A DNA stretch of 64,000 nucleotides from Candidatus Bathyarchaeota archaeon (GCA_963815095.1 CAWFFH010000003.1:800001-864000), one strand, 5' to 3'; positions 1-19,661 are shown, counted from the stretch's first letter. Translations and numbers: made by a program. Notes: generated by a model from the sequence alone, not told the origin.

Positions 1-151
1 TTTGGGTAGGTTGACGATTTGTTCCTGCATCTTTTTTGATCGGCTTACAGATCAAAGCGTCTTTTTTAGAACTTGAAGCTTATTTTGCTAATTTAAGAAA
101 GCAATATATTTAATCCAACATTAGGAATCTACCATAGAAAGGCCGTCTCAA

Positions 152-1891: not shown

Positions 1892-1906
1892 ATTTTAACC
1901 TCAAAA

Positions 1907-1928
1907 ATTTAAAAAAAAATAAAAAATA
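1907..1928 (-). terminator. Oligo-T terminator-like tract downstream of the mtrH-like gene
   Basis: Long A runs on + (T runs on -) just after the stop of 1942..2853. Confidence 0.5.
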
Positions 1929-1941
1929 AGGGAAGAATTTT

Positions 1942-2853: not shown

Positions 2854-2870
2854 TGTTCCACATCGGACGA

Positions 2871-3296
2871 TTATTTCTTCAATGCTTTCTTTGCAAGTTC
2901 TGGAGCTTCTTCTTTGTTCTTGCCGAAGAGTGCCCCGATTGCGTCTGCGTCTTCTTTTTTGACTGCTGCGCCGCCCATGATTATGCCGACTTTGTCTTTG
3001 AGACCTGCTGCTTTGAGAAGTTCGTCGAGTTTTGCAACGTTGTTCTTTGCTGGGACTGTATTAACGGAAACTGCAATCAAGTTTGCATTATTTTCTTTTA
3101 CTTTGTCAATGAAGACTTGTGGTGCAACGCTTTTTCCAACGTCGATGGTTTTGAATCCAGCACGTTTCAGTGATCGTCTAACTGCTTCTTTTGCTGTGTC
3201 GTGCATGTCTGGTTCGATGTTACCGATAACGACTATGCCGATTGGATTTTCTGGTTCTGGTGGTTCTTTTTCCATCATAGATTTAAGCCAAGACAT
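2871..3296 (-). CDS. Stand-alone corrinoid (B12-binding) protein
   Basis: DMHDTAK (variant of DxHxxG), GF.TIDVG, SV and MGGAA motifs; no N-terminal cap domain; 17 bp upstream of mtrH. Confidence 0.85.
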   Translation of the reverse strand: MSWLKSMMEKEPPEPENPIGIVVIGNIEPDMHDTAKEAVRRSLKRAGFKTIDVGKSVAPQVFIDKVKENNANLIAVSVNTVPAKNNVAKLDELLKAAGLKDKVGIIMGGAAVKKEDADAIGALFGKNKEEAPELAKKALKK

Positions 3297-3401
3297 TTAA
3301 ACACCTTTTTTCCTTTTGATACTCTGGGCTTTTTATACTCGAAATCCATATTTAACCTTTTACCAACAATTCAAACGTAAGTATATCAAGTGGGAAAGTA
3401 A

Positions 3402-5741
3402 ATGCTCAAAGCAAACAGAACATATGTCTTATTGCTGTTAATCTTTACTTTCTCATTCGTTTATCGCTTGCTTATGATGTTTTGGAGTAATTATCCATCT
3501 GGTGCCGACATTGGTCTGCATAACAGTGTAATTTCCTCTATTACAGGGTCAGGGTACACCAATTTTATGAATAATTTCTATCAGATGGGTGGAGGCATTT
3601 CGCTAACTTTTCCGGGATATCACATCTTTGCTTCAACCATAATCTTGATGACGGGAATGACTGGGTACATTGCGCAGGCAGTCATAGTGGCTTTGTTCTC
3701 ATCACTTATTGTTTTATGCGCATTTTTAATAACCAGGAATATTTGGACGGAGTCAGCCGCTTTTATTGTTGCCTTTTTAGTGGCTATCTCACGCTTTGAT
3801 ATAGAAATGCTCCTTTGGGGAGGTTACCCCAACGTAATAACGCTTCTTTTGATTCCTTTAACTTTTTATTTGTACCTACAAAAAGACCGATTTTCTTTGA
3901 CGCCTTTTCTGGTTTCGACATCTATTTTGGCCGGCTCCATATTCCTAACTCACTCGTTGAGCGCAGGCATTTTCGTCGGTGTTGCATTCCTCACTTTGCT
4001 TTTTGTTCTCGTTTCTCCCAAAACCTTCAGTACTTCAAGAAAAACTGTACTCTATTGGCTTTCTCCGATGATTATAGGAGGCGTCCTTGTTTTACCCTTC
4101 TTAGCGCAGGCTGTACCCACATATTTGCATGATAACTCTTCAGCCCCTGGCGTTCAAGGGGTCGGCGACATAACGTCTGCAATATTATCAACAAGAATCC
4201 TTCCGTTAGAAATGGTTTTGCCGCTCTTTCTAATAATATTAGCCTTCGCATTGTTCTCCAAAAAGTACAATGGACGATTTTTAAGTATTCCAACATTCCT
4301 TCTTTCTATGTGGCTGTTTGTTCCCTTATTTTTAACGCAAGGTTATCTGTTCGGATTTATCATCGATTATAATAGATTTCTATACTTTATTATTTTACCA
4401 GCAATAATTTTCATTGCTGTCCTAATAGACCACGCTTCAGAGTTCTTCACAAAAATAATCAGCACTTTCCGAGCTTTGACAAACCAAATGCAAAAAACAA
4501 AAAAAATAACTAACACCAAAATTGCGTGGCTCTCGGCACATTTGACAAGTAAGGCTCTTTATGGAGTCTTTGTTTTGTTTTTCTTGCTATTCTCCTTTAT
4601 TGCACTACCCATCTTTATGGCTCCCTCGCAGAATGTTGGCGAGACAATCCAAAGTTATTACCAAGTCATGAACAACCCAGGTTGGGAAGCGATTCAGTGG
4701 GCAAAGCAGAACACGCCTACAAACTCAGTGTTTGTTTCAGATGCACTCTATGGATGGTGGCTTGGTGGTTTCGCACAGAGACCAACGTTGAGTGCTGTTG
4801 ATCCACAGTACATAACGAGTGCCCGAGAGGTAGCACCAGCAAAGAACGCCACCTACCTGCTTGATACGGATTACTTGGTTGATAATGGTTTAGTTCAGGT
4901 TCGCGAGGATGGCGGTTATGTTGCTCGCCATAATCCTGAAATTTTGGCAGACCTCAATTGGACTTATTTTCCATATTCCTTTTTCACCTTTGATAGCAGC
5001 AGAACTGAAATCAGCTACAAAGTTGGGCAAGGAAACTTTTCGTCGTCTCTGGCTGATCTTGCGATGAAAGAAATGCATTTAGAGAATTATACTGATCATA
5101 AGACCATTGTAGTAAGCAGAGGTAACGACTTTTTCAATTATACTCAGTTTACAACTGTGTATGATCAATCAGCTTTTGTTAATTTGACTTCGACAATTGA
5201 AACCACTATTCCCGGTGTTTCTTTGGAGTCGGTTGAAATTAAAATTCAAAGTAAAGGCACACAAGTTACATTCGATGATGGACGCACATTAGCCTTCATC
5301 GACCAAGGTGTAAAAGTGTTAGGTCAATTAATCTTTGACCAAAATCAGAGAAATACCGTAGTCTGGAATGACGAAAACCCAGTACTAATAGAGTTAAAGT
5401 ACGATCTTCAGAATAGTTCTAATGGCCAAATTCAACTTATGGCAAGCGCAACCTCAGTATCTGATTCGCTGCAGTATTACGGAAACCAAGCTACCATAAA
5501 CCATTACTTCAAGCCTCTCATAGCTGGAAACCTAACATCTATTCAACTGTCTACGCCTATAGAGTTTAAAGAATGTTTTGATTATCGATTGGAATTGCAA
5601 AGAAACAATGTATCATATATTGCGTGCAGAAATGCTGAGTTAGATGTGAAATTTAGGGGAGACCCTGCGTTTAGCTTGGTATTTATTAACAGTGAAGTTG
5701 CAATCTTTAAGGTAAATGGGAACCTCAATCAAAACGGGTGA
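3402..5741 (+). CDS. Multi-pass GT-C-fold (polyprenyl-phosphate-sugar dependent) glycosyltransferase-like protein with C-terminal extracellular domain
   Basis: About 12 TM segments, GADIGLH first loop, THSL motif, W.KQNTP.NSVFVSD soluble domain. Confidence 0.65.
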   Translation: MLKANRTYVLLLLIFTFSFVYRLLMMFWSNYPSGADIGLHNSVISSITGSGYTNFMNNFYQMGGGISLTFPGYHIFASTIILMTGMTGYIAQAVIVALFSSLIVLCAFLITRNIWTESAAFIVAFLVAISRFDIEMLLWGGYPNVITLLLIPLTFYLYLQKDRFSLTPFLVSTSILAGSIFLTHSLSAGIFVGVAFLTLLFVLVSPKTFSTSRKTVLYWLSPMIIGGVLVLPFLAQAVPTYLHDNSSAPGVQGVGDITSAILSTRILPLEMVLPLFLIILAFALFSKKYNGRFLSIPTFLLSMWLFVPLFLTQGYLFGFIIDYNRFLYFIILPAIIFIAVLIDHASEFFTKIISTFRALTNQMQKTKKITNTKIAWLSAHLTSKALYGVFVLFFLLFSFIALPIFMAPSQNVGETIQSYYQVMNNPGWEAIQWAKQNTPTNSVFVSDALYGWWLGGFAQRPTLSAVDPQYITSAREVAPAKNATYLLDTDYLVDNGLVQVREDGGYVARHNPEILADLNWTYFPYSFFTFDSSRTEISYKVGQGNFSSSLADLAMKEMHLENYTDHKTIVVSRGNDFFNYTQFTTVYDQSAFVNLTSTIETTIPGVSLESVEIKIQSKGTQVTFDDGRTLAFIDQGVKVLGQLIFDQNQRNTVVWNDENPVLIELKYDLQNSSNGQIQLMASATSVSDSLQYYGNQATINHYFKPLIAGNLTSIQLSTPIEFKECFDYRLELQRNNVSYIACRNAELDVKFRGDPAFSLVFINSEVAIFKVNGNLNQNG

Positions 5742-5765
5742 GTTACCTTCTTCGCCTTAAGTGCT

Positions 5766-8048
5766 ATGAGTAAAGAGAAAAAAATCGAAATCACCTTCAT
5801 CACCATCTTTTCAGTGCTTATCTTTGCCATCTTCTTCACACTTATATCAATGAACGGGGTGGTTTTGGGAAATGACCCTGCGGTTCACTTAGAAAAAGCA
5901 CAAATTTTCCTCAATACAGGCAAAATTCCACTAGCAAATTTGGGTTGGACTCCGCCTCTCTACGAGATTGTGCTTGCAATGTTCATTTCTCTCACTGGAG
6001 CAACTGACATTGGGCAACTAATATTTCTAGTTAAAGTTTTGGCAGCTATAATTGATTGGCTCCTATTCCTCTCAGTTTATCTGATTGCTAGTAAATTTTT
6101 CAGCAAAAAAGTTGGAGTTGTAGCCTCTGTTTTGCTTTTGATGTGTTTTCCAATTTACGAAGTTAACCAGTTCGGCGGATACACCACCGTTTTAGCTTTG
6201 GTGTTCATGCTCTTAGTATTTCTCTACACGCCCCTAGCCGTAGAACGTTTTGGGTATTTGGTGGTTACTTTTTTTGTCGCTTTTGGGGTTGTTTTGTCCC
6301 ATCAACTTGCTGCTTTTCTTGCAATTTTCATAATGCCGCCTATCCTAATTTTTATGTTAATAAAATCCAAGGGTGCCTATCTAAAAGTTGTAATGGCGTT
6401 GATTTTGGGCGGAGGAATAGCGTTCTTTCTATACTATTTCCAAGCAATGATCGGTTACCTTGATATAGTCATCGAATACGTGTTTTTCGCTGTAAAAGCT
6501 TATGCATACCAGATTCCAGCGGTCAGCTTTTATTCTTTTATGGTTAATTTTGGCTTCGTATTTTTCTTAGCGTTAACCGGTATTTTTGTTTCATATTATT
6601 TGTTAAAGAAGCAAAAGAAGATCATTTTTTTTGTAACCTTAATGCTTAGTTTCTTTGTTCCGCTCTTCTTTGCTGAATCATACCTTTTTGGTTTTTACAT
6701 GCCGTTTGGCTGGTTTATCTATTATCTGACACCCTTGATAGCCGTTTTAGGAGCTGTACCCACTGTATTCTTAGCTGATAAATTCGTATCTTTTTACATC
6801 AAAAACAAATCAATGTTTAGAAAAAACTGGTTAAGAATAGCCACGGTCTCCATAATTATTCTTTTGTCGTTCATGTTTGTTGCACGTTCTGATATAGTAT
6901 ATGGAAAAATCAATGAAGCCAGCGTTTATTATTCAACTACAGACGTAAAAGCTTTAGATGCAGGAGTTTGGCTTAAAACAAACTACCCTGAAAATAGCAC
7001 CGTTGTGGCTACTGAGATTCCGGGTTTTTGGTTCCAAGAGTTTTCAGGCAAAAACGTGATTGCACAAACAGATCCTACAGTACAGAGAAATGAAATTGCC
7101 GAGTCAGTTTTGAGTTTATCTTATGAAATAGAGCATTCGCAAAGTCTCATTAGAGCTTACCAAGCTAAAGGCGATATCTCTGATGAAACCTACATTTCTA
7201 TTGATCAGGTTTGGAACAGGATTTCTCATTCTTCAGAAACCGGCGACTCCCTCTCGTACACAGTAAACGGCACTAACTACCAGTTCAAACTTGCCGACTT
7301 AAACAAACAAATAGTGTTTGATGAGCAACATTCACCTAAGGAAATAGAGTTCATCTACTCTAACGAACATGTTGCATTAACCGAGGCAGTTGTTGTTGAA
7401 AACACGAGTTACCCGCTTAATATTTCGTGGAGCTTGACACCTTTAAAGAGCGAACTATTCAATGCAACACTTTATTTAAGCACGTTTTTTGACCTAAAAT
7501 ACGACTTTGACAAGGCCCAAATTCCTCAGTTGCTTGATTGGGTAAACCCATGGGATGCACTTGCAGCCATAAGAACTGTTGAAGGAAAAACCTGGGCAGT
7601 TGCTAGCTTTACAAATACAACTTTGAAGGATAACTACATTGGCCTTTATGATGACAAAAATGATATCGCTTTTGCGTTTAAATTTAATGATTTACCTGAT
7701 TGGGGAAACATTGGGGCTCTTGCAAATAGGCAAATTGACGCAGTCAGGTTCCAGTACCAATTCAACGACTTAAGCATAAACCAGACAGCGTCGCGTTCAT
7801 ATCAGATGCTAACAATGTCTAAAAACAGTTTCCCAACGTTGCAACCCGATACATTGCAGGGATTGTTTGACTTTAAACCTGGTGAATTCACGGTTGCCAC
7901 GAGATATTACATGGACTACATAAATGGTAACAATATAGGCTTCATCGTTTACGATCGAAACCACCTAGATACCCAAATACTCAACAGCAAAATCCTGCAG
8001 CTTATTTACTCAAATGACCGATATGACATCTTCAAAATTATGAAATAA
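5766..8048 (+). CDS. GT-C-fold glycosyltransferase-like protein, paralog of upstream gene
   Basis: GNDPAVH loop, WTPPLY, SHQL, WLKTNYPENSTVV; same architecture as 3402..5741. Confidence 0.65.
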   Translation: MSKEKKIEITFITIFSVLIFAIFFTLISMNGVVLGNDPAVHLEKAQIFLNTGKIPLANLGWTPPLYEIVLAMFISLTGATDIGQLIFLVKVLAAIIDWLLFLSVYLIASKFFSKKVGVVASVLLLMCFPIYEVNQFGGYTTVLALVFMLLVFLYTPLAVERFGYLVVTFFVAFGVVLSHQLAAFLAIFIMPPILIFMLIKSKGAYLKVVMALILGGGIAFFLYYFQAMIGYLDIVIEYVFFAVKAYAYQIPAVSFYSFMVNFGFVFFLALTGIFVSYYLLKKQKKIIFFVTLMLSFFVPLFFAESYLFGFYMPFGWFIYYLTPLIAVLGAVPTVFLADKFVSFYIKNKSMFRKNWLRIATVSIIILLSFMFVARSDIVYGKINEASVYYSTTDVKALDAGVWLKTNYPENSTVVATEIPGFWFQEFSGKNVIAQTDPTVQRNEIAESVLSLSYEIEHSQSLIRAYQAKGDISDETYISIDQVWNRISHSSETGDSLSYTVNGTNYQFKLADLNKQIVFDEQHSPKEIEFIYSNEHVALTEAVVVENTSYPLNISWSLTPLKSELFNATLYLSTFFDLKYDFDKAQIPQLLDWVNPWDALAAIRTVEGKTWAVASFTNTTLKDNYIGLYDDKNDIAFAFKFNDLPDWGNIGALANRQIDAVRFQYQFNDLSINQTASRSYQMLTMSKNSFPTLQPDTLQGLFDFKPGEFTVATRYYMDYINGNNIGFIVYDRNHLDTQILNSKILQLIYSNDRYDIFKIMK

Positions 8049-8279
8049 CGATTTTTGGAGCATTTATAGATGCCATTTATACTTTTTGCCGGCGTTAACC
8101 ATGAAATTATTGTGTTTTTAGCAACCCGCCATCAAAATAAATGCTCTGAATTTTTTAATCACAGGATTTTTCTGCGGGCTGTTTTGAAGCTAAATGGATA
8201 GATGCTTGAGCAGATTTGTGGTTTAATTGGTTGTTACAAATTATTTGGTTTTCGAAGGCGTTTAAAAAATTAAGTAGAT

Positions 8280-8414
8280 TTAACGCCTAAATGCAAGCAT
8301 GTGTCCCTTGTGTGCAACCATCCTGTGATCACGAAGCTCGTCAGGAGTCTGAAAAGTTGAGGAACATATTCGGCATTTAAATTTTTCTTGGATAAGCTTT
8401 TCGTAAGTATACAT
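8280..8414 (-). CDS. 44-aa single C2H2 zinc-finger protein (below ORF-track cutoff)
   Basis: My translation: MYTYEKLIQEKFKCRICSSTFQTPDELRDHRMVAHKGHMLAFRR, matching F-x-C-x2-C-x3-F-x5-L-x2-H-x4-H. Confidence 0.8.
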   Translation of the reverse strand: MYTYEKLIQEKFKCRICSSTFQTPDELRDHRMVAHKGHMLAFRR

Positions 8415-9090
8415 CTAACATTAGCCTTCTCACTTGTTTTCTTGCAAAAAATGAGTCTTTTACAAGTTCACTAAATAATAGATGTTCGCAGACTTATAAA
8501 GGAATTAGGATTTCTAAACAAAACAATGGACAAAGCCAATCATTCTCGTTTGAAATATATTATTTTTTATCGGCACCCTAAATAGTTACGATGTACTGTA
8601 ATAGCACAAATCCTGCTGGAAAGCCAAGGAGGGACTAGACGCTTGAATAAAAAGACCAAACTTAAAGGCAAAGGAGCAAAATATTACCAAAACACTCACG
8701 GCAAAGTTTACAGAGTTAAACCAAACCCTAAAGCAAATAAACGAAAGTTGCTGCAAAAACGCCAGAGAAAAATAGATGCCCAACTTAAGGCAGCTGCTTA
8801 ATTTTTCTTAACAATTTATCAACTTTTCTTATTATCCCCCCAATTAGTATCGAAGCGATTTTTTCTTAATTCTTTCTGGTAAACTTGCTTAGTAACTGAT
8901 TCTTCTGAGGCGTGAAAAAAACAAAATATTCATTCAAACCCACTTCATTGCGTTATCGGGTAGGGAAAGGCTTTGAGTTGACCTCACAAAAACTTTTCAA
9001 GCGAACAGAATGCAAAGGCTGTATGTATAAATCAAATTCGTATTGTCAGAGTCAATATTTCTTTAATTTTTGGCTAAAATCAAAGTATGA

Positions 9091-9333
9091 TTATGTTGTT
9101 CCGTTAGGGTGTTTTTGCATCCAGTCCTCAGCGCATGTGTCGGCTTTAGCTTTAGTGGCATACTCGGGCGAGATTATTTTGCCTTCATCTTTATCGGTTT
9201 GTCCACACTCGAACAATTGTACATGGTAATTTTGGCTATAATCTTTTTTCAAAACCATCAATGTCTGCCCTGATGTATCGTTTAGGTAGCCGCACTCGTG
9301 GCTAAGTCTTTTCCAACCCTTAATTAGCTTCAT
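9091..9333 (-). CDS. Hypothetical protein (80 aa)
   Basis: ATG start with upstream AAGGA, protein-like composition, C-terminal W-M-x-K-H-P-x-G. Confidence 0.6.
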   Translation of the reverse strand: MKLIKGWKRLSHECGYLNDTSGQTLMVLKKDYSQNYHVQLFECGQTDKDEGKIISPEYATKAKADTCAEDWMQKHPNGTT

Positions 9334-9464
9334 TTTTTATCCTTCAATATTTTTGTGCATGTCAACTTTCTGGAAAATCGTCTTTGTGCACAATCAATAG
9401 AACTAGGAATCCTTCAACTTAAGGTTATCATGCAAAAAATAAAACTAAAAAGAAGAAAAGGAAA

Positions 9465-10367
9465 CTATTTGTATAGTTTTTCCCATCGGGTGAAGAGGTC
9501 TAAGACTTCGTCGCCGCCGTGACCCTTAAGGAACTCACGTGTTTCTTTGTCAGCAACTGCGTTCTTCTGGAACTCTTGAATCCACTGGGCTTTTTCTGCC
9601 AAGAATATGATTCCGTCTACGCCTTGTCTTGCAACACGTGTAGCAACAGTCATAATTTGCTTTGTTGGTGCAACGGTATCCCATGTTTCATTTGGACCCC
9701 GGACATAGAAGTTTACGAAGACGGGTTTCTTTAGAATGCTCTTGAAACCTCTTGCGATGGTTTCCCAGTACCAGGGGGTCGGGTAAGCCTTGCTGAACAT
9801 TGGGATAACGAAGTAATCCGCGTATTGTGCCATGGCTTCAAAGTCATAGCCGAAGCGTTCTCTGCCCATTAATGGATCAGGGAGAAGGTTGACAAAGAGT
9901 GGTTTGCCGGAGACTACTTCTTTAACTTCAGCTAAGAAGTCAGTTACTACTTTTGCCCGCCAATCAAGCCATTTTAAGCCGCTTTTTCGTTGTTGTTCGA
10001 TGCATCTCGGGCAGGTGCAGAAATGCTGGTCTGCAAAGTGTTGGCTGCTGATGCTTATGCCTGGTGTGACTTTGGCGGATTCAGCGATGATTTTTAGATT
10101 ATATTCTCTTGCTTCTGGGTTAGTCATACATACGACGTCCCAGCGGAGGTTGTAGCGTTTATTGGTGCGGAGCGCTGGACCCCATGAGCTTACAGAGTTC
10201 CAGTCTGGACGCTTCGCCGCCATAAAGTTGTCACCGAAGCATGCGATGTTAGTATACATTTCCGGGTTGGGGTTTCCAACAATTCCTGATTCTGATTTTA
10301 ATCGGTAGAAGTTGTAATCGACGCCTTCAACAGGCTCGGGTTGATAGAGAAATACGCCGAATTTCAA
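9465..10367 (-). CDS. Uncharacterised TIM-barrel-like (GHL10/GH42-like) protein with HF.DQ..CxCxxC motif
   Basis: Probable TTG start at 10367 by alignment to paralog 11765..12661; VVCMTNP, HFADQHFCTCPRC, W..WR, ERFG.DF, DYF..P. Confidence 0.75.
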   Translation of the reverse strand: MKFGVFLYQPEPVEGVDYNFYRLKSESGIVGNPNPEMYTNIACFGDNFMAAKRPDWNSVSSWGPALRTNKRYNLRWDVVCMTNPEAREYNLKIIAESAKVTPGISISSQHFADQHFCTCPRCIEQQRKSGLKWLDWRAKVVTDFLAEVKEVVSGKPLFVNLLPDPLMGRERFGYDFEAMAQYADYFVIPMFSKAYPTPWYWETIARGFKSILKKPVFVNFYVRGPNETWDTVAPTKQIMTVATRVARQGVDGIIFLAEKAQWIQEFQKNAVADKETREFLKGHGGDEVLDLFTRWEKLYK

Positions 10368-10434
10368 GTTAATACACCATTTTTTCTGTTGTTTTATTAC
10401 GGAATAAAAGTGCAAGTTATTTAAGTCTTTTCAG

Positions 10435-11478
10435 TTAAGGCTTAGATTGGGCGGTTTTGACAATTTTGATTAGTGTATGTTTTAAGAAGGGAGGTAGGTC
10501 CACAGTGGGATAATTTGGCACTTTAGAATTATCATGTTTGGAGATTACAGATACCCCAAAAAATTTGCTCGCATCTACCCAATCCACAAAGTCGGTTGGC
10601 AACAGGTTTTTCTTGTAATCGTCATCCATTTTCGCAGCAGCCAAAAGCCACATTCCAGCCGATGGATTCTTCTTGAGAATTTCAACCAAATCTCCAGCAG
10701 TAACCATTAAGCCTTCAGTTTTGGAAACTTCCACGGCCAATTTTTCAAGCGGCAAATGCCTCTCTTTGAGCCTGTCTAACACTGTGCGGCAAGCCCAAAT
10801 CGGCTCTTGCTTAAGCAATGCCTCAGTTACAGCATGTCTCGCACAATATCCCACTATCTTGCCTAACTTCGACGCCGGACCCGCTAAGATTAGCTTTTTA
10901 CCCCTACAAGTTGAGGCAATGGTGACGCTGTCGGTTATTGAACCTGTAGCGGAATCGCCAGTATAGCGGCTTCGGACATCAAAATCCCGCAGCACAGCTG
11001 ACTTGGCTTCAGTAGCTGTAATTAACGCGGCAACCATACAACTCTCCGATGGGTTCCCGTCGATGAAAACGATGATGTTTATGGTGCCCATGAGTTCCTG
11101 GACATCCATCTCTTCACCTGAAGATTCGCCATGTGAACAGCCCGCGGTTGCAACAACGTGAACTGAGAAGTTGTCGGCTTTTTTAGTGACTAAACTGTAA
11201 TTTTTAATTTTTGCTGCTGTAACCATAGCAAGGTAGTCTTTAGTTAATCCCACTTTTCCCGCGGATGTTGTGATAAGTTCGAGCGGGTCAAGATGCAAGG
11301 AGCGGTCGCTGTAGCCTTCAGGCACTCCTACATTAAGGACAGCTTTAACCTGATTGTATCCGCCATTATAGATTGCTGAGCTAACTGTTTTTAAAGCATT
11401 ATTACAAAAAACGCCTAGTACGTTCTCTTTCAAAACAAATCTTACGCCTTCAGCAAGCTCCAGTTCTTCCAAACCCAT
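10435..11478 (-). CDS. cbiZ: Adenosylcobinamide amidohydrolase CbiZ
   Basis: SSAIYNGG, AMVTAA, VATAG, GTINI, TATEAKS, ATGSITD motifs. Confidence 0.9.
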   Translation of the reverse strand: MGLEELELAEGVRFVLKENVLGVFCNNALKTVSSAIYNGGYNQVKAVLNVGVPEGYSDRSLHLDPLELITTSAGKVGLTKDYLAMVTAAKIKNYSLVTKKADNFSVHVVATAGCSHGESSGEEMDVQELMGTINIIVFIDGNPSESCMVAALITATEAKSAVLRDFDVRSRYTGDSATGSITDSVTIASTCRGKKLILAGPASKLGKIVGYCARHAVTEALLKQEPIWACRTVLDRLKERHLPLEKLAVEVSKTEGLMVTAGDLVEILKKNPSAGMWLLAAAKMDDDYKKNLLPTDFVDWVDASKFFGVSVISKHDNSKVPNYPTVDLPPFLKHTLIKIVKTAQSKP

Positions 11479-11487
11479 TTCACACAG

Positions 11488-11718
11488 CTATTTTTGGGGT
11501 CTACTGTCATTTATAGTGATGGCTTTTGTGGGACAGAGATTAACACAGACACCACAACGCGTGCACTGTACGACGTCGATAACCTGGGGTTTGCGGTTCT
11601 TGCCTTCTTCGAGGGCCCCAACTGGACAAATGCCGATGCAGATTTGCCCAGTGCACGGTTGGCACTTTGCCGCGTCGATTGTAACTGGGGCTTTTCGCTT
11701 GTCCATTTGAATCAACAA
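11488..11718 (-). CDS. 2[4Fe-4S]-type ferredoxin
   Basis: CQPCTGQICIGICP and CTRCGVCVNLCP. Confidence 0.9.
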   Translation of the reverse strand: MLIQMDKRKAPVTIDAAKCQPCTGQICIGICPVGALEEGKNRKPQVIDVVQCTRCGVCVNLCPTKAITINDSRPQK

Positions 11719-11758
11719 TTAAATAAGCACCGATAATATATTTGTTGCGAGCAAGGTA

Positions 11759-12661
11759 TTGGGCATGAAAATAGGCTTAGTCACATACACTCCTGAAAGG
11801 GTCGAAGGTTTTAACCCGCATGTTTTCTTCGCCAAATGGGTTGATGGACAAGTTTTTCCCGCAGCCGAAGGAATGCAGAATGATGTGACTGTTTTCTGCG
11901 ATGCCAAAGCAATCCGCGAGGACCCAAGCATCGTTGCCCTCTCAAAAGGCGGACCAGCACTACGCCGCAATAGAAAATCCAATTTAGCTTTTGACTTCGT
12001 CTGCCCAACTCATCCACAATACCGCGCGAAAGTCTTTGACTATCTTGACACCATTTCAAAACAGGACATAAGCGGCGTCACACTGAATCTATACCACTTT
12101 CCAGACCAAGATTATTGCATCTGTCCAAGATGTACCGAGCAAAGGCAGAAAAGCGGCTTGGATTGGACACAATGGCGAGCCCAGACAATAACGTCTTTTC
12201 TGAAAGAAGCAAAAACTCATTGCAAGGGCACTTTTGCTGTGGAAATGTTTCCTGACCCCGTCTTGGCTAAAGAACGGTTTGGAATAGACTTCAGCGCGAT
12301 AGCTGAACTGGTGGATTATTTCCATGTACCTCTTTCATCGAGGGATTATTTGACTAATTATTGGGTTGACACAATAGTCCGCGACTTCGTTGCCATCCTA
12401 AAGAAACCTGTGGTGGTAGAGCTCAGCGCTGAAATGCCCACTGACGAAAAACTTGACGCGCTACTAAAAACGGTTGCTTACATTTCCCGCCATAAAATCG
12501 AGGCTGTTTTGCTGCTTGTGCATAACTCGGAAAACGCTCGGCAAGTGACAAGGTTTGCTGTACAGAACGCTGACTTCCGCGAATGGCTAGCAAAGTATGA
12601 GTTTGCGGAAATGAACCGAATCGTTGACGATTGGGCCAAGACTTCTTTATTTAAACCCTGA
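11759..12661 (+). CDS. Uncharacterised TIM-barrel-like protein, paralog of 9465..10367
   Basis: FVCPTHP, HFPDQDYCICPRC, WTQWRA, PDP..AKERFGIDF, DYFHVP; colinear with the paralog over its full length (likely start ATG 11765). Confidence 0.75.
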   Translation: MGMKIGLVTYTPERVEGFNPHVFFAKWVDGQVFPAAEGMQNDVTVFCDAKAIREDPSIVALSKGGPALRRNRKSNLAFDFVCPTHPQYRAKVFDYLDTISKQDISGVTLNLYHFPDQDYCICPRCTEQRQKSGLDWTQWRAQTITSFLKEAKTHCKGTFAVEMFPDPVLAKERFGIDFSAIAELVDYFHVPLSSRDYLTNYWVDTIVRDFVAILKKPVVVELSAEMPTDEKLDALLKTVAYISRHKIEAVLLLVHNSENARQVTRFAVQNADFREWLAKYEFAEMNRIVDDWAKTSLFKP

Positions 12662-12720
12662 CATGTTGACCATATGTCAACAAAAGAAATTAGTGGCCAA
12701 CACGGTGGGCGGTTCCAAGG

Positions 12721-13473
12721 TTAAGCTTTGCTGAGTTGCGCTCGGTAGTCTCTTAACACTTGCATGTCTAAGTCCGCGCTTAAAATCGAGTCTTCCGGTG
12801 AATCGGTGACTTCTCCAAGAACGCCCCATGGGGCGATAATTGCGCTTCGTCCTCCTCTCATGTTGGAGCAAACGTTGCCGACTTTTAAGATGTAGAAACC
12901 GAAGTTTCTCGCAATTCCAACCGTTAAGGGGTGACCTTGAACTGTGGGATGGGTTCCCATTGCAGCTACGGGCAACGAGATGATTTCCGCACCCATCATA
13001 GCTACTTTGGTTACGACATCTGGGTTGAAGGTGTCAGCGCACACAATCATTCCTAGCTTGCCCAAATTTGTGTCAACCACGACGGGCTCAAAGCCTTTGG
13101 AGACACCTGCTTCCGTCTCCGCTTTTATGGGGCTGATTTTCTTGTATTTAGCCAGCATTTTACCGTTTTTCCAGAGTGTGCTTGTATTGTAATATTTGCT
13201 TTCGTCTTCTTCTAGTACAGTGCCGCCCAGAAGGTAGATTTCTCCGATGGTTCTTGAGACTTCCTCGAGGAACTGCAGTGTTTTTTTGGAGGTTTCCTGT
13301 GAGATTTTTTGGGCATTAGTGAAGTCGGCCATGCAGTTGGGAACGGTAAAGTATTCGGGAAGGGCGATTAGAGCTGGTTTTTGTTTTGCGGCTTTGAGGA
13401 CGGCGGTTTTGGCGGCGGTTAGGTTGTCTTGTAGTGTGAGGCGGATTTTCATGTGTAGTACGCTGACTTTCAT
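12721..13473 (-). CDS. Carbon-nitrogen hydrolase (nitrilase superfamily)
   Basis: Glu-Lys-Cys triad in ALPEYF / YKKIS / IVCAD; GRSAIIAPWG; likely start ATG 13473. Confidence 0.9.
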   Translation of the reverse strand: MKVSVLHMKIRLTLQDNLTAAKTAVLKAAKQKPALIALPEYFTVPNCMADFTNAQKISQETSKKTLQFLEEVSRTIGEIYLLGGTVLEEDESKYYNTSTLWKNGKMLAKYKKISPIKAETEAGVSKGFEPVVVDTNLGKLGMIVCADTFNPDVVTKVAMMGAEIISLPVAAMGTHPTVQGHPLTVGIARNFGFYILKVGNVCSNMRGGRSAIIAPWGVLGEVTDSPEDSILSADLDMQVLRDYRAQLSKA

Positions 13474-13690
13474 GCAGGATGCCTTCTGTTTTGTGTATTG
13501 ATTTTTGTTTTTGAGCATTTAAACTTAATTGGTTAATGTGATTATTGGACTATTCTTCGCGAATGGTGGCCGTTTGTCCAGCATTATTTTGGAGTTCCGC
13601 ACAGATGTCTATTAATTGACGCCATTTATATGCATGCGGATAACCTTAAATACTGCCTGAAAGACAAACTCTGTAAAGCGAGGGACAAAA

Positions 13691-14674
13691 ATGGCAATAA
13701 ACGAATCAGAGGTTAACAAACTCCTCCCCGAAGTAAGAACCCTAATTAACAAAGTCGTCAAGAAAAACATGGCAGACGGCTTCCTATTCTCAGCTGGAAC
13801 CGACACCCAAATAATCGCCTACGAAGCAGTCAAATACAACCCCGACATACCCTGCCTCACATTAGCCTTCAAACACGGTCAGCCCAAAGACACCGAATAC
13901 GTCAAGAAAATGGTTGCACTCCTTCACCTTAAACACGAAACCTACCAATTCGGCAAAGAAGATGTAATGAAATTTTTCCCCAAAGTCGTCGAAGCACTCA
14001 AAAAATACGACCCCATGGAAATCAGAAACAGCCTCCCAGTCTACATCGGCTTAACTCTTCTAAAACCCAAAGGAATAAAAACCGTTTTTACAGGAGACGC
14101 CTTAGACGAGCTTTTTGGTTACCCCTGGCAATTCCATCTGTCCGAAGAACAGTTCGCCGTGAAACAACAGGAAATGTGGGCTGAAATGGGGTTCTCCTCA
14201 TTCCCGATGGCAGAGTCTCTTGGAATGCAAATCAAAGCACCCTACAGAGATCCCGAATTCATGGCTTGGGCAATGAAACTACCTATCAAATACAAGATTA
14301 ACATGTACAACGGCGTAAAATACGGCAAATGGATTCTGCGCAAAGCGTACGAAGACGTCATACCTAACGACATAATTTGGAGGCCCAAAGCACCCTTGGA
14401 AGCCGGAACAGGAACAGAAACATTACGCACCTACTTCAACGACATGATAACCGACAAAGAGTTCAATGAGAAGAAAGTAGCCATAAAAGCAGCCGACGAC
14501 GTGGAAATCCAAGATAAAGAACAGCTTCTCTACTACGAGGTCTTCCGTCAAAAATTCGGCAAACCAAAAGACGTGTTCCCAAAAGTCGAAGGCGCAATAC
14601 AATGTCCCAAATGCCACAGCTATATTAAAACTAAGATACAATTCTGCAAAACATGCGGAGCTTATCCCATCTAA
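13691..14674 (+). CDS. Asparagine-synthetase C-terminal (ATP pyrophosphatase) domain protein lacking glutaminase domain, with C-terminal Zn ribbon
   Basis: PP-loop variant FSAGTDT, TGDALDELFGY, KWILRKAY, WRPKAP; CPKC...CKTC. Confidence 0.85.
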   Translation: MAINESEVNKLLPEVRTLINKVVKKNMADGFLFSAGTDTQIIAYEAVKYNPDIPCLTLAFKHGQPKDTEYVKKMVALLHLKHETYQFGKEDVMKFFPKVVEALKKYDPMEIRNSLPVYIGLTLLKPKGIKTVFTGDALDELFGYPWQFHLSEEQFAVKQQEMWAEMGFSSFPMAESLGMQIKAPYRDPEFMAWAMKLPIKYKINMYNGVKYGKWILRKAYEDVIPNDIIWRPKAPLEAGTGTETLRTYFNDMITDKEFNEKKVAIKAADDVEIQDKEQLLYYEVFRQKFGKPKDVFPKVEGAIQCPKCHSYIKTKIQFCKTCGAYPI

Positions 14675-14767
14675 TTCCTTCTTTATTTTTTTGAAAAACG
14701 CCATTTTAACTGCTTTTTTCAGGAAAGACTTAATTCTTTAGTCTGTACTTTTGGAAAACAAAAAGGG

Positions 14768-15844
14768 TTGAGTCTGATGGCTAAGCTGAGTGATTTGAAG
14801 TGGGCTATGGGCACAAGCATCTTTGCCGCTAGCTTCATCTTTGGCATATTTTTACTAGGTGTTATTTTCCTGCTACAATATTATGTAGTGGGTTTTGACT
14901 TAGTAACCGGTTTGATTTTGGCTCTAGGCGGTACTTTATTGTTCATACTCTTCGAATACGCAATCGGTCCAGTCATAGTCTCCTTAACCACCCGTTTACA
15001 CTTTCTAAAGCCCGGAGAGAATCCATGGTTGGAAAACACCGTTAAGGAGTTAGCTGCCAAAAGCAATATTCCGATGCCTAAACTGGCCATTGTCCCAAAT
15101 AATACCCCTAACGCCTTCACTTATGGTCGAACCAGTAGCAGCGCCGTTCTGGCGGTTCATGAAGGGCTCCTTAGAAGCCTCAATGAAGATGAGATTCGGG
15201 GAGTAATCGCCCATGAACTTGGACATATTAAACATAAAGATTACATTGTAATGACAGTTCTTTCAGCTCTGCCGCTTATTGCTTATTGGATAGCGCAGAT
15301 TGCATTAAACGCAGCATGGTTTAGTGGTGGATCCTCAAGAAGAAACAAAGACCAGGGAAACGCTGGTATCGTACTCATTGTTATCGGTGTTGCCTCTTTT
15401 GTAGTTTATATCCTGAGCTTTCTTGCCGTAATGCGTCTTAGCAGATTACGTGAACACTTCGCCGATGCATACAGCGCTTACCTAACAGGAAACCCCCGAA
15501 ACCTTCAAAGCGCCCTTGCGAAAATTACCTACGGTTTATCTCTTGCTCCAAAAGCTACTGCGGAAGCGCGGAGCTTCTATATAGAAGACCCAAGCCAAGC
15601 AAAACAGGAAGTTGCTGAAATAATGAATAAAAAAGATGAATACGACCTTGACCACGACGGCGTTTTGGACCAGCGCGAGTTAGAGTTGGCGATGGAGAAA
15701 GAATCAAAGAGTACATGGGTACAAATGAACAGTTTATTTGCTACGCATCCACCAACTTTTAAGCGCATTTTGCTCCTAAAAGAAATCGAACAGGAAATGG
15801 GCACTGGGAATTACAGCAATGACAATATGTATAATCATGTGTAA
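14768..15844 (+). CDS. htpX: HtpX-type M48 zinc metalloprotease
   Basis: PNAFTYG, HELGH, SRLREHFAD, FATHPP; TM helices. Confidence 0.92.
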   Translation: MSLMAKLSDLKWAMGTSIFAASFIFGIFLLGVIFLLQYYVVGFDLVTGLILALGGTLLFILFEYAIGPVIVSLTTRLHFLKPGENPWLENTVKELAAKSNIPMPKLAIVPNNTPNAFTYGRTSSSAVLAVHEGLLRSLNEDEIRGVIAHELGHIKHKDYIVMTVLSALPLIAYWIAQIALNAAWFSGGSSRRNKDQGNAGIVLIVIGVASFVVYILSFLAVMRLSRLREHFADAYSAYLTGNPRNLQSALAKITYGLSLAPKATAEARSFYIEDPSQAKQEVAEIMNKKDEYDLDHDGVLDQRELELAMEKESKSTWVQMNSLFATHPPTFKRILLLKEIEQEMGTGNYSNDNMYNHV

Positions 15845-15938
15845 TACTCTTTTTTTGCCTAAAAATGTTGAATTACATGCGAAGACTAATATCCACCCAG
15901 AAATAAATTACTAACAAACCTCAAAAGAGAAACCAAAA

Positions 15939-16145
15939 ATGGTAAATTACTGTCCAGAGTGCGGTGGAGAAATACAATATATCTCGTTGACTAAACATTA
16001 CGTCTGCAAAAGCTGCGGATTATCCTGTACAGGACAGGAACTCAATGACTTGCATGACAAGAATAGGCCTGCCGATGAAACCGCTGAAGAAGTTAGACAA
16101 AACCGCAGAAAAGAATACCTTAAATGGTATCTTAGCAAAAAATAA
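15939..16145 (+). CDS. Small zinc-ribbon protein
   Basis: CPECGG...CKSCG. Confidence 0.75.
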   Translation: MVNYCPECGGEIQYISLTKHYVCKSCGLSCTGQELNDLHDKNRPADETAEEVRQNRRKEYLKWYLSKK

Positions 16146-16268
16146 AATTGCCAAAAAAAGGGTAATCACCTTTTTCGTTAGCCTTGACGCTGTTTTATCA
16201 GCGCCTATAACTAAAGAATTAACTTTAAATCGACTCGCCCGGTTAATTAAAATGGTGTAGGCGACTTT

Positions 16269-16835
16269 ATGTTTCAGCGAGTTAATGTTCTGGCTTTTGC
16301 GGGAAGTCTACGCAAAGGCTCATTTAACAAGGCCCTAATCCGTGCCGCCGTGGAATTGGCACCCGAAAACGTTGTAATCGAAGTTTTTGATTTAGAAGGT
16401 ATTCCGCCGTTTAACCAAGACTTTGAAGCTACTCCACCTCAAAGAGTCAAAGAGTTTAAGGAGAAAATCAGAGAGGCTGATGCCCTTTTGATAGCCACCC
16501 CCGAATATAATTATTCGGTTTCAGGAGTTTTAAAAAACGCGCTTGATTGCGCCTCAAGACCAAGAGTGGATATGCCTTTGGAAGGTAAACCTGTAGCCAT
16601 CATGAGCGCTTCAACTGGAAGATTTGGCGGTGCAAGGGCACAGTATCATCTGCGGCAATCATTCATTTTTCTCAACATGCTACCCATTAACCGCCCTGAA
16701 GTCATGCTTACAGATTCAATGCACAATGTTGATGCCAATGGAAATCTAACCAACGAGCAAACACGCAAACTCATCGTGCAACTGCTCGAAGCGCTCGCAG
16801 CATGGACCATTAAACTCAAAGATAAGCCACAATAA
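16269..16835 (+). CDS. NAD(P)H-dependent FMN reductase (ChrR/SsuE flavodoxin-like)
   Basis: GSLRKGSFN, TPEYNYS, LKNALD, GGARAQ. Confidence 0.92.
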   Translation: MFQRVNVLAFAGSLRKGSFNKALIRAAVELAPENVVIEVFDLEGIPPFNQDFEATPPQRVKEFKEKIREADALLIATPEYNYSVSGVLKNALDCASRPRVDMPLEGKPVAIMSASTGRFGGARAQYHLRQSFIFLNMLPINRPEVMLTDSMHNVDANGNLTNEQTRKLIVQLLEALAAWTIKLKDKPQ

Positions 16836-16909
16836 CTTCACCAGTTTTCACGTTGACACAGCAAAGCCTTAAAATGGCAATGTGTCTCGTAAAGTATTGG
16901 CGAATCAAT

Positions 16910-18208
16910 ATGAGAGTCATAGCTGACCTGCACATTCACGGTCGTTTCAGCCGAGCAACAAGCGAACAAATGAATATTCCCGAAATAGGTAAGTACGCAA
17001 AAATTAAGGGACTCAACCTAATTGGTACAGGCGATTTTACTCATCCCGATTGGCTCAAGGAAATCAAACAGACCCTGACGCCCGAGCAAGATACAGGGCT
17101 CTTCAAACTAACCCATATGGATTCTGCGATACGTTTCATTCTTCAAACTGAAGTTTGCACGATCTTTGATTACAAGGGCGAATCCAAAAAAATCCACCAC
17201 GTCATATTAACTCCAAGCTTAGAAACCGCTATTCAAATCAATGAGCGCCTTCAAAGCTTTGGGAGTTTAAGCTCAGACGGCAGACCAATCCTTAATGTAT
17301 CCGCTCCTCAATTTGTTGAAGAAGTTATGGCAGTTTCAGATGATAACATAGTATTTCCAGCACACGCTTGGACACCATGGTTTAGCATCTTCGGAGCATT
17401 TAGCGGCTTTGACACAATGGAAGACTGCTACCAAGACATGACCAAACACATCCATGCGTTGGAAACGGGTTTATCATCTGACCCGCCTATGAATTGGCGT
17501 CTCAGCAAACTTGACAGATACACGTTGATTTCTAATAGTGACTGTCACAGTTTTTGGCCTTGGCGCATCGGCAGAGAAGCCAACGCGTTTGAGTTGGAAA
17601 CGTTCAGCTACAAAGAAGTCACAGAAATAATAATCGCTAAAGATTCTTCACACTTCAAGTTCACCATTGAAACTGACCCTGCCTATGGCAAGTATCATTT
17701 GACAGGGCACAGAAACTGCAAAGTTTCCCTATCACCAGCCGAAGCCACAAAATTCGGCAACATCTGCCCTGTTTGCCACAGAAGTCTCACTAAAGGTGTC
17801 GAGCAACGGGTGGAAGAACTCGCTGATCGCCCAGCAGATTTTAAGCGTGAAGGTGCACATGGGTTTATGAGGTTGCTTCCGCTCTCCGAAATCATCGCGG
17901 CAGTGCTTGGGACTGATTCGCCTGCAACTAAGGCCGTTTGGAAAAACTATAATTTGTTAACGGAGAAATTCAGTGATGAGTACAAGGTGCTGATTGATGC
18001 GCCTTTAGATGCGTTGGCACAAGTGGTGGGTGCATCGATTGCACAGGTTATCGTTAAGGTTAGAGAGGGTAATGCTAAAGTTACACCGGGATACGACGGT
18101 GTTTACGGTCAACTGGTTTTAGGCATCAATGTTCCTCCAGCTGTTAAACTCAAGCCTAAACTAATTCAACCAATTGTTAAGCAGAAGAGTATGACTGATT
18201 TCTGGTAA
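16910..18208 (+). CDS. endoQ: Endonuclease Q family (PHP domain plus Zn finger) DNA-repair nuclease
   Basis: ADLHIHGRFSRATS, GTGDFTHP, PAHAWTPW, ETGLSSD, SNSDCHS, GKYH..GHR.C, CPVC; C-terminal PIP-box-like QKSMTDFW. Confidence 0.88.
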   Translation: MRVIADLHIHGRFSRATSEQMNIPEIGKYAKIKGLNLIGTGDFTHPDWLKEIKQTLTPEQDTGLFKLTHMDSAIRFILQTEVCTIFDYKGESKKIHHVILTPSLETAIQINERLQSFGSLSSDGRPILNVSAPQFVEEVMAVSDDNIVFPAHAWTPWFSIFGAFSGFDTMEDCYQDMTKHIHALETGLSSDPPMNWRLSKLDRYTLISNSDCHSFWPWRIGREANAFELETFSYKEVTEIIIAKDSSHFKFTIETDPAYGKYHLTGHRNCKVSLSPAEATKFGNICPVCHRSLTKGVEQRVEELADRPADFKREGAHGFMRLLPLSEIIAAVLGTDSPATKAVWKNYNLLTEKFSDEYKVLIDAPLDALAQVVGASIAQVIVKVREGNAKVTPGYDGVYGQLVLGINVPPAVKLKPKLIQPIVKQKSMTDFW

Positions 18209-18274
18209 GCCACAATATTCAAGCAAATTGTTTAATTCCCCCAAACAATTCTATTTTGAAAGGTACCGATTACC

Positions 18275-19661
18275 TTGAAAGACCTTCTAACCAAAATCAA
18301 CAAGATAGCCACCCAAAAGTTTGGCGCCCAATATGCTGAAGCCCGAGCCCAAAAACTCTACAAAACTGCCCTCACCCTAAAAGAGGAACGCGTAGAAGCC
18401 GCCAAACAGGGAATTGAAAACGGCGTCGCCCTCCGAGTGCTCGTGAATGGTGCTTGGGGTTTTGCGTCAGTGGGCTCGTTGGATTCGACTATTTTGGAGG
18501 ATGCTGTATCAGATGCTTGTAGGATGGCTAAACTTGCAAGCGGACGGCTAAAAACACCCATTAAACTAGCATATGCCAAAGTTGTGGAGGACCATGTTTT
18601 ATCCAAGCCAAAGAAGAATCCCGCGGACATCCCGATAGAAGACAAAATAAAAACTGCTCTTGCCGTAAACAAGACGAGTTTGAGCTTTGACAAACGCATC
18701 AAAAGTTGCTCAATAGATTACTTTGATTTGACTGGATCAAGCTTTTTCTTGAACAGTGAGGGCACGAGTATAGAGCAGGACAAGTTGTATGTCTGGGCAA
18801 GGATGACTGCTTCTGCCGTAACTGAAGGCGTCTTCACTTTTAGTCGGGAAGAAATTGGTTCCACAAAAGGTTACGAACTCTTCGATGAACAAGCCCCTGA
18901 AGCGTTAGGTGAGAAAGTTGCCAAGCTTGCGATTGAACAATTAAATGCCAAAGCTCCGAAGGGTGGAAAATTTCCCGTTGTTTTGGGTCCCAATGTTGTG
19001 GGGGTTTTTGTTCATGAAGCGTTTGGGCATTTGGCTGAAGCTGATTTGGCTCTTTCAGGTGGAGTGTTGGCTGATAATTTTGGGAAAAAAATTGGTTCTA
19101 ATTTGGTAACGTTTTATGATGATGGCACAATTGATGGAGCGTTTGGTGCATTCAAATACGATGATGAAGGCGTTCCAGCTCAGAAAACCTTGCTCATAAA
19201 AGACGGCGTAGTATCTGGCTTGATGCATAACCGCGAAACCGCATCAGAAATTTAATGCTCAACCCACTGGTAACGCGCGGGCAGAAGACTTCCGTGTGGA
19301 GCCAATCATTCGGATGCGTTGTACTTATATGGCACCCAGAGACCAAACCTTCGAAGAATTAATTGAAGATGTAAAGTCAGGTTATTACTTTAAGAGTTTT
19401 AGGGGCGGGCAAGCGAACCTTGACGGCACTTTCCAAGTGGGCATTCAAGAAGGCTACGAAATTGTGAACGGCAAAATCGGCGCCCCCGTCCGCAACGCAT
19501 CAATAAGCGGAAATACTCTTGAAACATTGCATCAGGTGGATGCTGTGGGAAAGGATTTCCTCTTAGACCCTGGTCGATGCGGCAAGGGTCAGACAGCTTT
19601 TATTAGTGACGGTGGACCGCACATTAGAATCAGTAAGGTGGTTGTCGGTGGCAGTGCTTGA
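18275..19661 (+). pseudogene. tldD: TldD metalloprotease, interrupted by a +1 frameshift near 19244-19255
   Basis: HEAFGH, YDDEG in frame 1; continuation QKFNAQPTGNARA...PIIRM...CGKGQ in the +1 frame. Confidence 0.85.

Follow-up and report, generated by a model that had tools for sequence, protein, structure and literature searches.

In corrinoid-dependent methyl transfer, a first methyltransferase (MT1) passes the methyl group of the substrate to the Co(I) of a cognate corrinoid protein. Known examples are MtaB and the MT1 of the bacterial and Methermicoccus-type O-demethylases, which in general have TIM-barrel architecture; the zinc of MtaB is catalytic. A system lacking sequence homology to these enzymes has been described for Candidatus Baizosediminiarchaeum ligniniphilus (Yu et al. 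2023, mLife, PMC10989822), in which, according to the accessible parts of that paper, two proteins of about 300 amino acids (aa) 'without homology to known MT1', MtgB_1 and MtgB_2, share an mtg cluster with the corrinoid protein MtgC, the MtrH-type second methyltransferase (MT2) MtgA and a membrane protein. Expressed MtgB_2 transferred the methyl group of guaiacol and vanillin to Co(I)-MtgC, and MtgB, described there as a Bathyarchaeia-only family with an identity of 44.85% between MtgB_1 and MtgB_2, demethylates lignin-derived aromatics in these archaea (PMC10989822). The passages available from a 2025 review restate this MtgB system only. From a 64,000-nt stretch of Candidatus Bathyarchaeota archaeon (GCA_963815095.1 CAWFFH010000003.1:800001-864000; in the following the window, to which all coordinates without a locus name refer), two paralogous barrel proteins, copy A and copy B, can be deduced which enclose cbiZ and a ferredoxin gene. 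Judged by sequence, both belong to the MtgB family and do not constitute a new enzyme class, and the region is probably the MT1-plus-cofactor half of a bathyarchaeal mtg cluster for O-demethylation of methoxy-aromatics. The genes on which this assignment is built are:

9465..10370, minus strand: copy A, predicted MtgB-type MT1 (aryl methyl ether:corrinoid methyltransferase), 300 aa, TTG start
10435..11478, minus strand: cbiZ (adenosylcobinamide amidohydrolase) with C-terminal extension, PF01955
11488..11718, minus strand: small ferredoxin with two [4Fe-4S] motifs (Fer4 families), first gene of the fdx-cbiZ-mtgB unit
11719..11764, no strand: divergent intergenic region of 46 bp with the AT-rich stretch gataatatattt at 11732-11743, found by sequence inspection
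11765..12661, plus strand: copy B, MtgB-like barrel protein of a separate clade, assigned by homology and tree
2871..3296, minus strand: corrinoid protein of the MtgC type, 141 aa, B12-binding domain only (PF02310)
1942..2853, minus strand: predicted MtrH-family methyltransferase of the MtgA type (MT2, methyl-corrinoid to tetrahydromethanopterin), PF02007 at 264 bits

For linking the window to the assayed enzyme, both mtgB_2 primers of PMC10989822 were compared, in their gene-specific portions, with relative genomes. They match a single gene in genome G098 (L015:7856-8758), the reverse primer exactly and the forward primer with one mismatch, TTG versus ATG at the start codon; an exact scan of the genome contigs for the forward primer was empty. 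This gene and its neighbour L015:8988-9887 are identical at 135/301 positions, i.e., 44.85% and hence the same value as published for MtgB_1 and MtgB_2, and the gene order of locus L015 (corrinoid protein, MtrH, DUF1616 membrane protein, MtgB_1, MtgB_2) agrees with the published gene numbering. Directly after MtgB_2, CbiZ, a ferredoxin and a copy B type gene follow. Copy A shares 167/298 identities (56%, E 2e-132) with MtgB_2 (L015:7856-8755), and the TTG start in L015 on which the forward primer falls is equivalent to the TTG of copy A. By sequence and gene order, copy A can be regarded as the positional ortholog of MtgB_2 and as a new member of an already published family. Also the MtgC/MtgA/membrane-protein neighbourhood of published MtgB is present in the window at 1942..8048, with the MtrH and corrinoid protein genes lying 6.6 kb upstream of the module and the corrinoid protein being 60-93% identical to neighbours of MtgB genes in other loci. 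The resemblance to the MtgB_1/MtgB_2 system extends to the same partners (short corrinoid protein, MtrH-type MT2 and membrane protein) and the same protein size of about 300 aa. In contrast, copy B falls outside the MtgB_1/MtgB_2 clade, and the genome of the window has its MtgB_1-type copies dispersed (L005, L006). Copy B is maybe identical with 'group 3' of PMC10989822, an equation which is an unconfirmed guess.

An earlier note on this DNA, made from the sequence alone, had described two proteins of about 300 aa aligning end to end, the enclosure of cbiZ and ferredoxin between them, and a divergent arrangement of copy B and ferredoxin across about 40 bp. All this is borne out, as copy A and copy B align over their full length with 103/301 identities (34%, E 3e-60, BLASTP), the gene order was verified with the CbiZ matching PF01955 at 159.6 bits (cut-off 27) and the ferredoxin carrying both cluster motifs, and the distance between the starts of ferredoxin (11718) and copy B (11765) leaves 46 bp. 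The same note had suggested an enzyme of corrinoid remodelling or, alternatively, the missing MT1 for the MtrH/corrinoid pair. The latter idea agrees with copy A in view of its orthology to MtgB_2, while it is no longer a novelty with the activity already published; the former is considered below for copy B. Regarding the gene starts, the longest open reading frame (ORF) for copy A is 9465..10415 on the minus strand, with the homology-supported start being the TTG at 10370, as orthologs begin with (M)KFGVFLY. Likewise, ORF 11759..12661 on the plus strand likely starts with the ATG at 11765, in line with orthologs beginning with MKIGLVTY. The region 11719..11764 is possibly a shared archaeal promoter, to judge from its composition. 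An Rfam scan of positions 1..20000 gave nothing at gathering score, and the sequencing runs found were six DNA rows from soil metagenomes, their word shares never exceeding 0.30, with no RNA dataset among them.

Following the published chemistry, copy A would accommodate its aryl methyl ether substrate at the top of the TIM barrel and pass the methyl group to the Co(I) of the MtgC-type protein (2871..3296), a step shown for the ortholog MtgB_2 and presumed here, and the MtrH homolog MtgA (1942..2853) would then hand the methyl group to tetrahydromethanopterin. Copy B would represent an older sister lineage, fixed beside fdx-cbiZ-mtgB. Most likely it acts on corrinoid cobalt too, be it as a further MT1 accepting different substrates or in cofactor handling. 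The products of cbiZ and the ferredoxin gene might ensure cofactor supply for a heavily used corrinoid protein, with the ferredoxin presumably serving as low-potential electron source.

In a maximum likelihood tree of 33 rows with midpoint root, MtgB_2, MtgB_1, copy A and two further paralogs of the window's genome form clade I (100/100), while clade II comprises copy B with its orthologs (12 rows, 100/99) and single-copy members of other bathyarchaeal families. Four family paralogs are encoded in the window's genome, of which the two outside the window are solitary, one beside an ammonium transporter and MarC and the other beside a P-type ATPase. A search of 1.84 billion proteins (E ≤0.001) gave 91 family representatives at 50% identity, which makes this a small family, and its nearest Atlas clusters are labelled Candidatus Bathyarchaeota. 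Class-wide, a homolog was found in 90/401 genomes. Among 101 sampled genomes from the window's taxonomic family, 23 have the barrel family and 40 have MtrH, and the latter is present in 20/23 of the barrel-positive versus 20/78 of the barrel-negative genomes; the three barrel-positive genomes lacking MtrH are 66-75% complete.

Beyond Bathyarchaeia, the haloarchaeal-looking representative P0147 retrieved at least 80 loci, nearly all titled as Halobacteria genomes or metagenome-assembled genomes, so that 'Bathyarchaeia-only', as published, is true of the MT1 clades, while the family in the wider sense reaches beyond this class. In tblastn searches (E ≤1e-4) with BtuF, BtuC, BtuD, CbiZ, CbiB, CobS, CobT, CobQ, MtrH, corrinoid protein and ferredoxin as queries, a corrinoid gene within 7 kb was found in 0/80 of these loci, and the neighbours identified by Pfam in six of them are pyrB/pyrI, NUDIX and RNase P. 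The Halobacteria homolog (L023-L102) is single copy, widespread and keeps D110, D194 and E221 (here and below, residues are given in copy B numbering) as well as the motif of four cysteines (Cys4), and is probably still a hydrolase. Homologs bearing hydrolase carboxylates away from corrinoid genes, which the earlier note had named as evidence against a corrinoid role, thus exist in the haloarchaeal branch, whereas the two window proteins are not of this type. A link to corrinoid genes, for which that note had proposed a neighbourhood survey, is seen in window-type loci and in part of clade II, but not in the haloarchaeal ones.

That the barrel has been recruited from a glycoside hydrolase scaffold of the GH42/GHL10 type can be inferred from structure prediction and sequence comparison. 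The AlphaFold2 model of copy B (pLDDT 96.3, pTM 0.92) finds glycoside-hydrolase-type barrels as closest structural matches in both Foldseek and VIA-align, the latter giving Cwp19 (Z 20.9), BpsB (19.7), PgaB (19.4), a GH151 fucosidase (18.9) and GH42 enzymes (15.7-17.3). GHL10 Cwp19 (5OQ2) and the C-terminal domain of GH153 PgaB/BpsB (4F9D, 6AU1), hydrolases of cell-wall or exopolysaccharide substrates, superimpose with a root-mean-square deviation of 2.8-3.5 Å over 242-265 residues and Foldseek E-values of 2.7e-10 to 1.4e-9, albeit at only 11-13% identity. Neither the 50 best rows of VIA-align nor those listed by Foldseek contain a solved corrinoid methyltransferase, which leaves room for a distant likeness. 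A single-sequence search of solved structures led from copy B to Cwp19 at E 0.29 and from copy A to nothing. In Pfam, copy A reaches DUF4015 (PF13200) with 22.8 bits (cut-off 27) and, also below threshold, DUF4838, copy B gives no match, and the GHL10 (PF02638) scores of the window proteins are under the gathering cut-off, while NCBIfam has no model for either paralog; DUF4015 is passed with 38.8 bits by a relative from a btu operon (L018, see below). The family profile, however, aligns C-P-x4-Y-R and C-x-C-x-x-C with the GH42 entry 3tts, although at an E-value of only 0.053, and confirms, along with the structural matches, the GH42/GHL10 likeness already noticed from the sequence alone.

Invariant in 26/26 family representatives are C82, C120, C122 and C125, likewise G30, G175 and Y197, and the four cysteines are kept at 100% in all seven compared groups, including 76 haloarchaeal sequences; D48, D166, R173 and Y197 are kept in all groups compared. 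The earlier note was hence right about four conserved cysteines, and about the conserved histidine only in part: in the five bathyarchaeal groups with more than one sequence, H113 is conserved to 75-100%, but the haloarchaeal group and the single L022 sequence have Gly instead. Its claim of a lost acidic residue is confirmed at position 110, at which the haloarchaeal, btu-operon and L022 proteins have Asp or Glu, whereas Ser is found in copy A and Asn takes this place in copy B. For the β7 Glu (position 221), copy A has Asn, while copy B retains it as E221. By group, the key positions are occupied as follows:

Haloarchaeal, btu-operon and L022-type: position 110 D (L022: E); positions 193-194 Y, D; position 221 E; position 113 H in the btu-operon group, G in haloarchaeal and L022 proteins
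Copy B type: position 110 N; positions 193-194 S, S; position 221 E; position 113 H
Clade I (MT1s): position 110 S or N (Ser in copy A); positions 193-194 F or W, S; position 221 N or G; position 113 H

This pattern suggests a stepwise loss of carboxylates from a hydrolase scaffold that eventually gave rise to an MT1. An MtaB-like catalytic metal, towards which the note's mention of Zn TIM barrels points, is not supported by these data, as the zinc of MtaB is catalytic while the Cys4 motif here aligns with the Cys-Zn cluster of GH42, a family whose β-galactosidases 3TTS and 1KWK have both the TIM barrel and this motif in common with the window proteins. This cluster and the catalytic NEY and ME motifs of GH42 are defined in the available sections of PMC8573354, where the zinc in Bca-beta-gal is given as domain-stabilising and not catalytic (citing Maksimainen 2012). 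By analogy, the Cys4 motif is most likely an inherited structural zinc site. In contrast to GH42, the N-E acid/base position is F114-P115 in the family profile alignment, and the window proteins lack extra domains. Neither a glycosidase-type fold nor a GH42-like Cys4 site of MtgB was found described in open papers and preprints, and the accessible text of PMC10989822 holds no mention of cbiZ, cobinamide, zinc or a glycosidase-like fold.

Given this fold, with all top matches being glycoside-hydrolase-type barrels and with sub-threshold DUF4015, DUF4838 and GHL10 matches, both proteins could be ordinary GHL10/GH42-like glycoside hydrolases acting on a glycan, with coincidental corrinoid neighbours. 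The family member adjoining acyltransferase_3 and GDSL esterase genes in G098 and G090 would also agree with this. Yet such a role is extremely improbable considering the F-P at the GH42 acid/base position, the replacement of D110, D194 and E221, all three in copy A and two of three in copy B, the published methyltransferase activity of the ortholog MtgB_2 (PMC10989822), and a corrinoid neighbourhood kept across families at 33-50% identity. Besides, in one of these genomes, G098, a 980-aa protein with three tandem BtuF-like periplasmic binding domains (PF01497) is encoded 2.3 kb from a family member (L145:11136-14078).

Several points, however, weigh against assigning the region to methoxy-aromatic O-demethylation. 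Copy A is just 56% identical to the assayed enzyme, whose biochemistry rests on a single study, with no independent follow-up found in the open literature, and the MtgC and MtgA genes do not form one operon with copy A, being located at the 6.6 kb distance behind two membrane-protein genes. Corrinoid chemistry is not implied by family membership alone, as seen from the lack of corrinoid genes in the 80 haloarchaeal loci. Similarly, the searches on seven singleton loci of the f29 group (L136-L142) found a match for an ABC ATPase only and no BtuC, BtuF or cobamide gene, with Pfam showing an ABC-2 exporter and trp genes in two of them. The structural role of the Cys4 site, too, is only carried over by analogy from GH42. 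Copy B shows only 37% identity to MtgB_2 (111/299, E 2e-61, L015:7856-8755), keeps the Glu221 lost in clade I and is closer in the tree to members from btuFCD operons, and its role as MT1 is therefore a guess. Complex prediction for copy B with the corrinoid protein, run without controls, gave no answer (score 0.00, mark 0.32).

Conservation is strong for the unit of copy B, ferredoxin, cbiZ and MtgB. Two taxonomic families provided 11 loci, each from a different genome; copy B type gene, ferredoxin and CbiZ occur together in 11/11, and a clade I gene is directly next to them, beside cbiZ, in 10/11, the remaining one (L017) having it 3.5 kb off and inverted. In five of the 11 (L007, L013, L014, L015, L016), MtrH and corrinoid protein genes are adjacent to the module. 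The same holds for metagenome loci, which are related rather than independent and were counted only where the flank of the copy B type gene was long enough: this gene has a ferredoxin gene upstream in 29/32, CbiZ near it in 21/22 and a clade I paralog within 5.5 kb in 18/19. This near-constant co-occurrence, compact in 10 of the 11 genome loci, would be expected if copies A and B were the two subunits of one heterodimeric MT1, an arrangement the earlier note had considered. We regard this as improbable, since MtgB_2 showed its in vitro activity with no protein of the copy B type present (PMC10989822), the two proteins named for the published cluster, MtgB_1 and MtgB_2, belong to clade I and not to the copy B type, and the genes for copy A and copy B are divergently transcribed and not co-translated.

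For the cofactor side of the assigned O-demethylase cluster, the CbiZ of the window is informative. In addition to the PF01955 match, it scores 119 bits with the NCBIfam model CbiS, below the cut-off of 250, and is possibly CbiS-like by sequence, while its C-terminal extension weakly resembles 1tlq YpjQ (E 0.015). Compared to the known CbiZ/CbiS amidohydrolases, the window copy is an extra one, placed inside a methyltransferase cluster, and the mtg-linked CbiZ proteins form a long-branch clade in the window's taxonomic family, with a short 240-aa form in L008-L010. Degeneration of the mtg-linked copy was considered and rejected, as core residues are retained; 36 invariant columns are shared with the copies from btu operons. 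The other CbiZ of the genome is encoded in the operon btuF-btuC-btuD-radical SAM/SPASM-DUF2284-cbiZ-(236-aa protein) next to cbiM (L105:3322-11199, corresponding to C3:47321-55198), and a radical SAM gene was also observed inside the btu operon of L018. Within the window's own genome (98.45% complete), two CobS, two CbiZ and the btuFCD operon were found, and no matches to CbiC or CbiD. As no markers of corrin-ring synthesis are seen, the organism presumably has to salvage and rebuild corrinoids. In the same genome, a RACo/RamA-type activase (RACo_C_ter, PF14574) was searched with zero matches, whereas the control Methanosarcina acetivorans matches. This parallels the organism of Yu et al., for which an activating enzyme was not identified either according to the available text (PMC10989822), and Bathyarchaeum tardum, for which the portions at hand of Khomyakova et al. 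2023 (PMC10477458) likewise give the activating enzyme as unidentified and cobalamin synthesis as missing.

The relatives of copy B in clade II extend this link to corrinoids. In two other bathyarchaeal families (L018-L021), single-copy members such as L018:4808-5599 sit between btuF and btuC, with cbiB-cobT-cbiZ-cobS as further btu neighbours in L018 and an aminotransferase, a zf-like gene and cobQ in L021. Among 24 metagenome singletons with at least 1.1 kb of upstream sequence, BtuF is directly upstream in 9, of which a script detected 8 while the ninth, L181, has overlapping genes; the other 15 lack it at this position. The btuF-linked ones comprise several sequence lineages at 43-100% identity. 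In G098, cobS adjoins the corrinoid protein gene. Part of clade II thus has a genuine link to corrinoids, which does not extend to the entire family. Neither these btu-operon cousins nor the unit of copy B, fdx, cbiZ and MtgB were found reported in open papers and preprints.

From this a different role for copy B can be derived, in which it is not an O-demethylase and would form, together with the ferredoxin and the mtg-linked CbiZ, a unit for corrinoid maturation or reactivation. Copy B would then bind a corrinoid, either free or on a protein, and take off or pass on its upper ligand, or it would help to load or re-reduce the MtgC cofactor; the unit would replace the activating enzyme that these organisms do without, and the MT1 clade would have descended from a corrinoid-handling ancestor. 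In favour of this are the grouping of copy B with members embedded between btuF and btuC beside cbiB, cobT, cbiZ, cobS or cobQ, the btuF-linked singletons from several lineages, the tight association of copy B with ferredoxin and CbiZ, and the missing activase. On the other hand, the majority of the singletons have no BtuF directly upstream, and the btu-operon members retain D110, D194 and E221, two of which copy B has lost, so that its function may differ. Known reductive activases use ATP, while the unit contains no ATPase, and copy B has H113 as well as the loss of D110 and D194 in common with the assayed MT1 clade. All in all, we consider such a maturation role possible but rather unlikely. 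Equally doubtful is the broader idea that the copy B clade and its btuFCD cousins represent an unrecognised corrinoid-handling enzyme on a glycosidase barrel, with the lignin MtgB being a later offshoot. Corrinoid remodelling, as the earlier note had put it, is not demonstrated by these comparisons; it may apply to copy B, given the clade II members in btuFCD and cobamide-salvage operons.

The module is accompanied in the window by further genes, partly kept in related loci:

3402..8048, plus strand: two genes for large membrane proteins of 779 and 760 aa, separating the MtgC/MtgA genes from the MtgB module
152..1531, plus strand: B12-binding radical SAM enzyme (PF02310 and PF04055)
12721..13518, minus strand: CN-hydrolase (Pfam)
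13691..14674, plus strand: Asn-synthase-like PP-loop protein without glutaminase domain and with C-terminal zinc ribbon (Pfam)

The two membrane proteins of about 770 aa match no Pfam family at threshold, giving weak STT3 and PMT_2 rows only. Homologs flank MtgC in L007, L013 and L016, and the 'transporter candidate' of the published cluster, a far smaller DUF1616 protein in L015, may be the counterpart of the two proteins. The neighbouring corrinoid protein lacks the usual helical cap and bears the motif D-M-H-D-T-A, while the classical B12-binding motif ends in Gly. Genes of the 152..1531 radical SAM type are adjacent to MtgB-type genes in L008-L010, L186, L203, L223, L235 and L236. The best NCBIfam rows of the window's enzyme are BchE, ApyD and HpnJ, all under cut-off. 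Bathy-8 archaea have butanetriol tetraether lipids, which are thought to require C-methylation of the backbone, and this radical SAM enzyme might be considered as a candidate for the backbone C-methylase concerned. CN-hydrolase and PP-loop protein (12721..14674) are constant neighbours of copy B, arranged as a convergent/divergent pair, with the CN-hydrolase being downstream of the copy B type gene in 34/34 metagenome loci with sufficient flank and in 7/11 genome loci. The pair looks like a split glutamine-dependent amidotransferase, whereas its involvement in the re-amidation of salvaged corrinoids would be purely speculative. Locus L006 from the same genome additionally contains a eukaryotic-type topoisomerase IB (L006:1840-3495, corresponding to C3:989839-991494; Topoisom_I_N, Topoisom_I, Topo_C_assoc).

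Bathyarchaeia are among the most abundant archaea of anoxic sediments, and MtgB has been proposed, in the accessible parts of PMC10989822, as the entry of lignin methoxy groups into their carbon metabolism. With copy A placed in the MtgB family by sequence, it is no longer a protein of unknown kind, and the comparison provides handles on mechanism and origin of MtgB, namely a glycosidase-type barrel with a GH42-like Cys4 site and replaced carboxylates, a second clade locked to ferredoxin and cbiZ, and relatives in corrinoid-uptake operons. The locus also bears on the question of how a corrinoid protein is kept loaded and reduced without a known activating enzyme. If copy B should indeed prove to be corrinoid-handling, then copy B, the ferredoxin and the extra CbiZ would replace the activation and maturation machinery in corrinoid-auxotrophic archaea.

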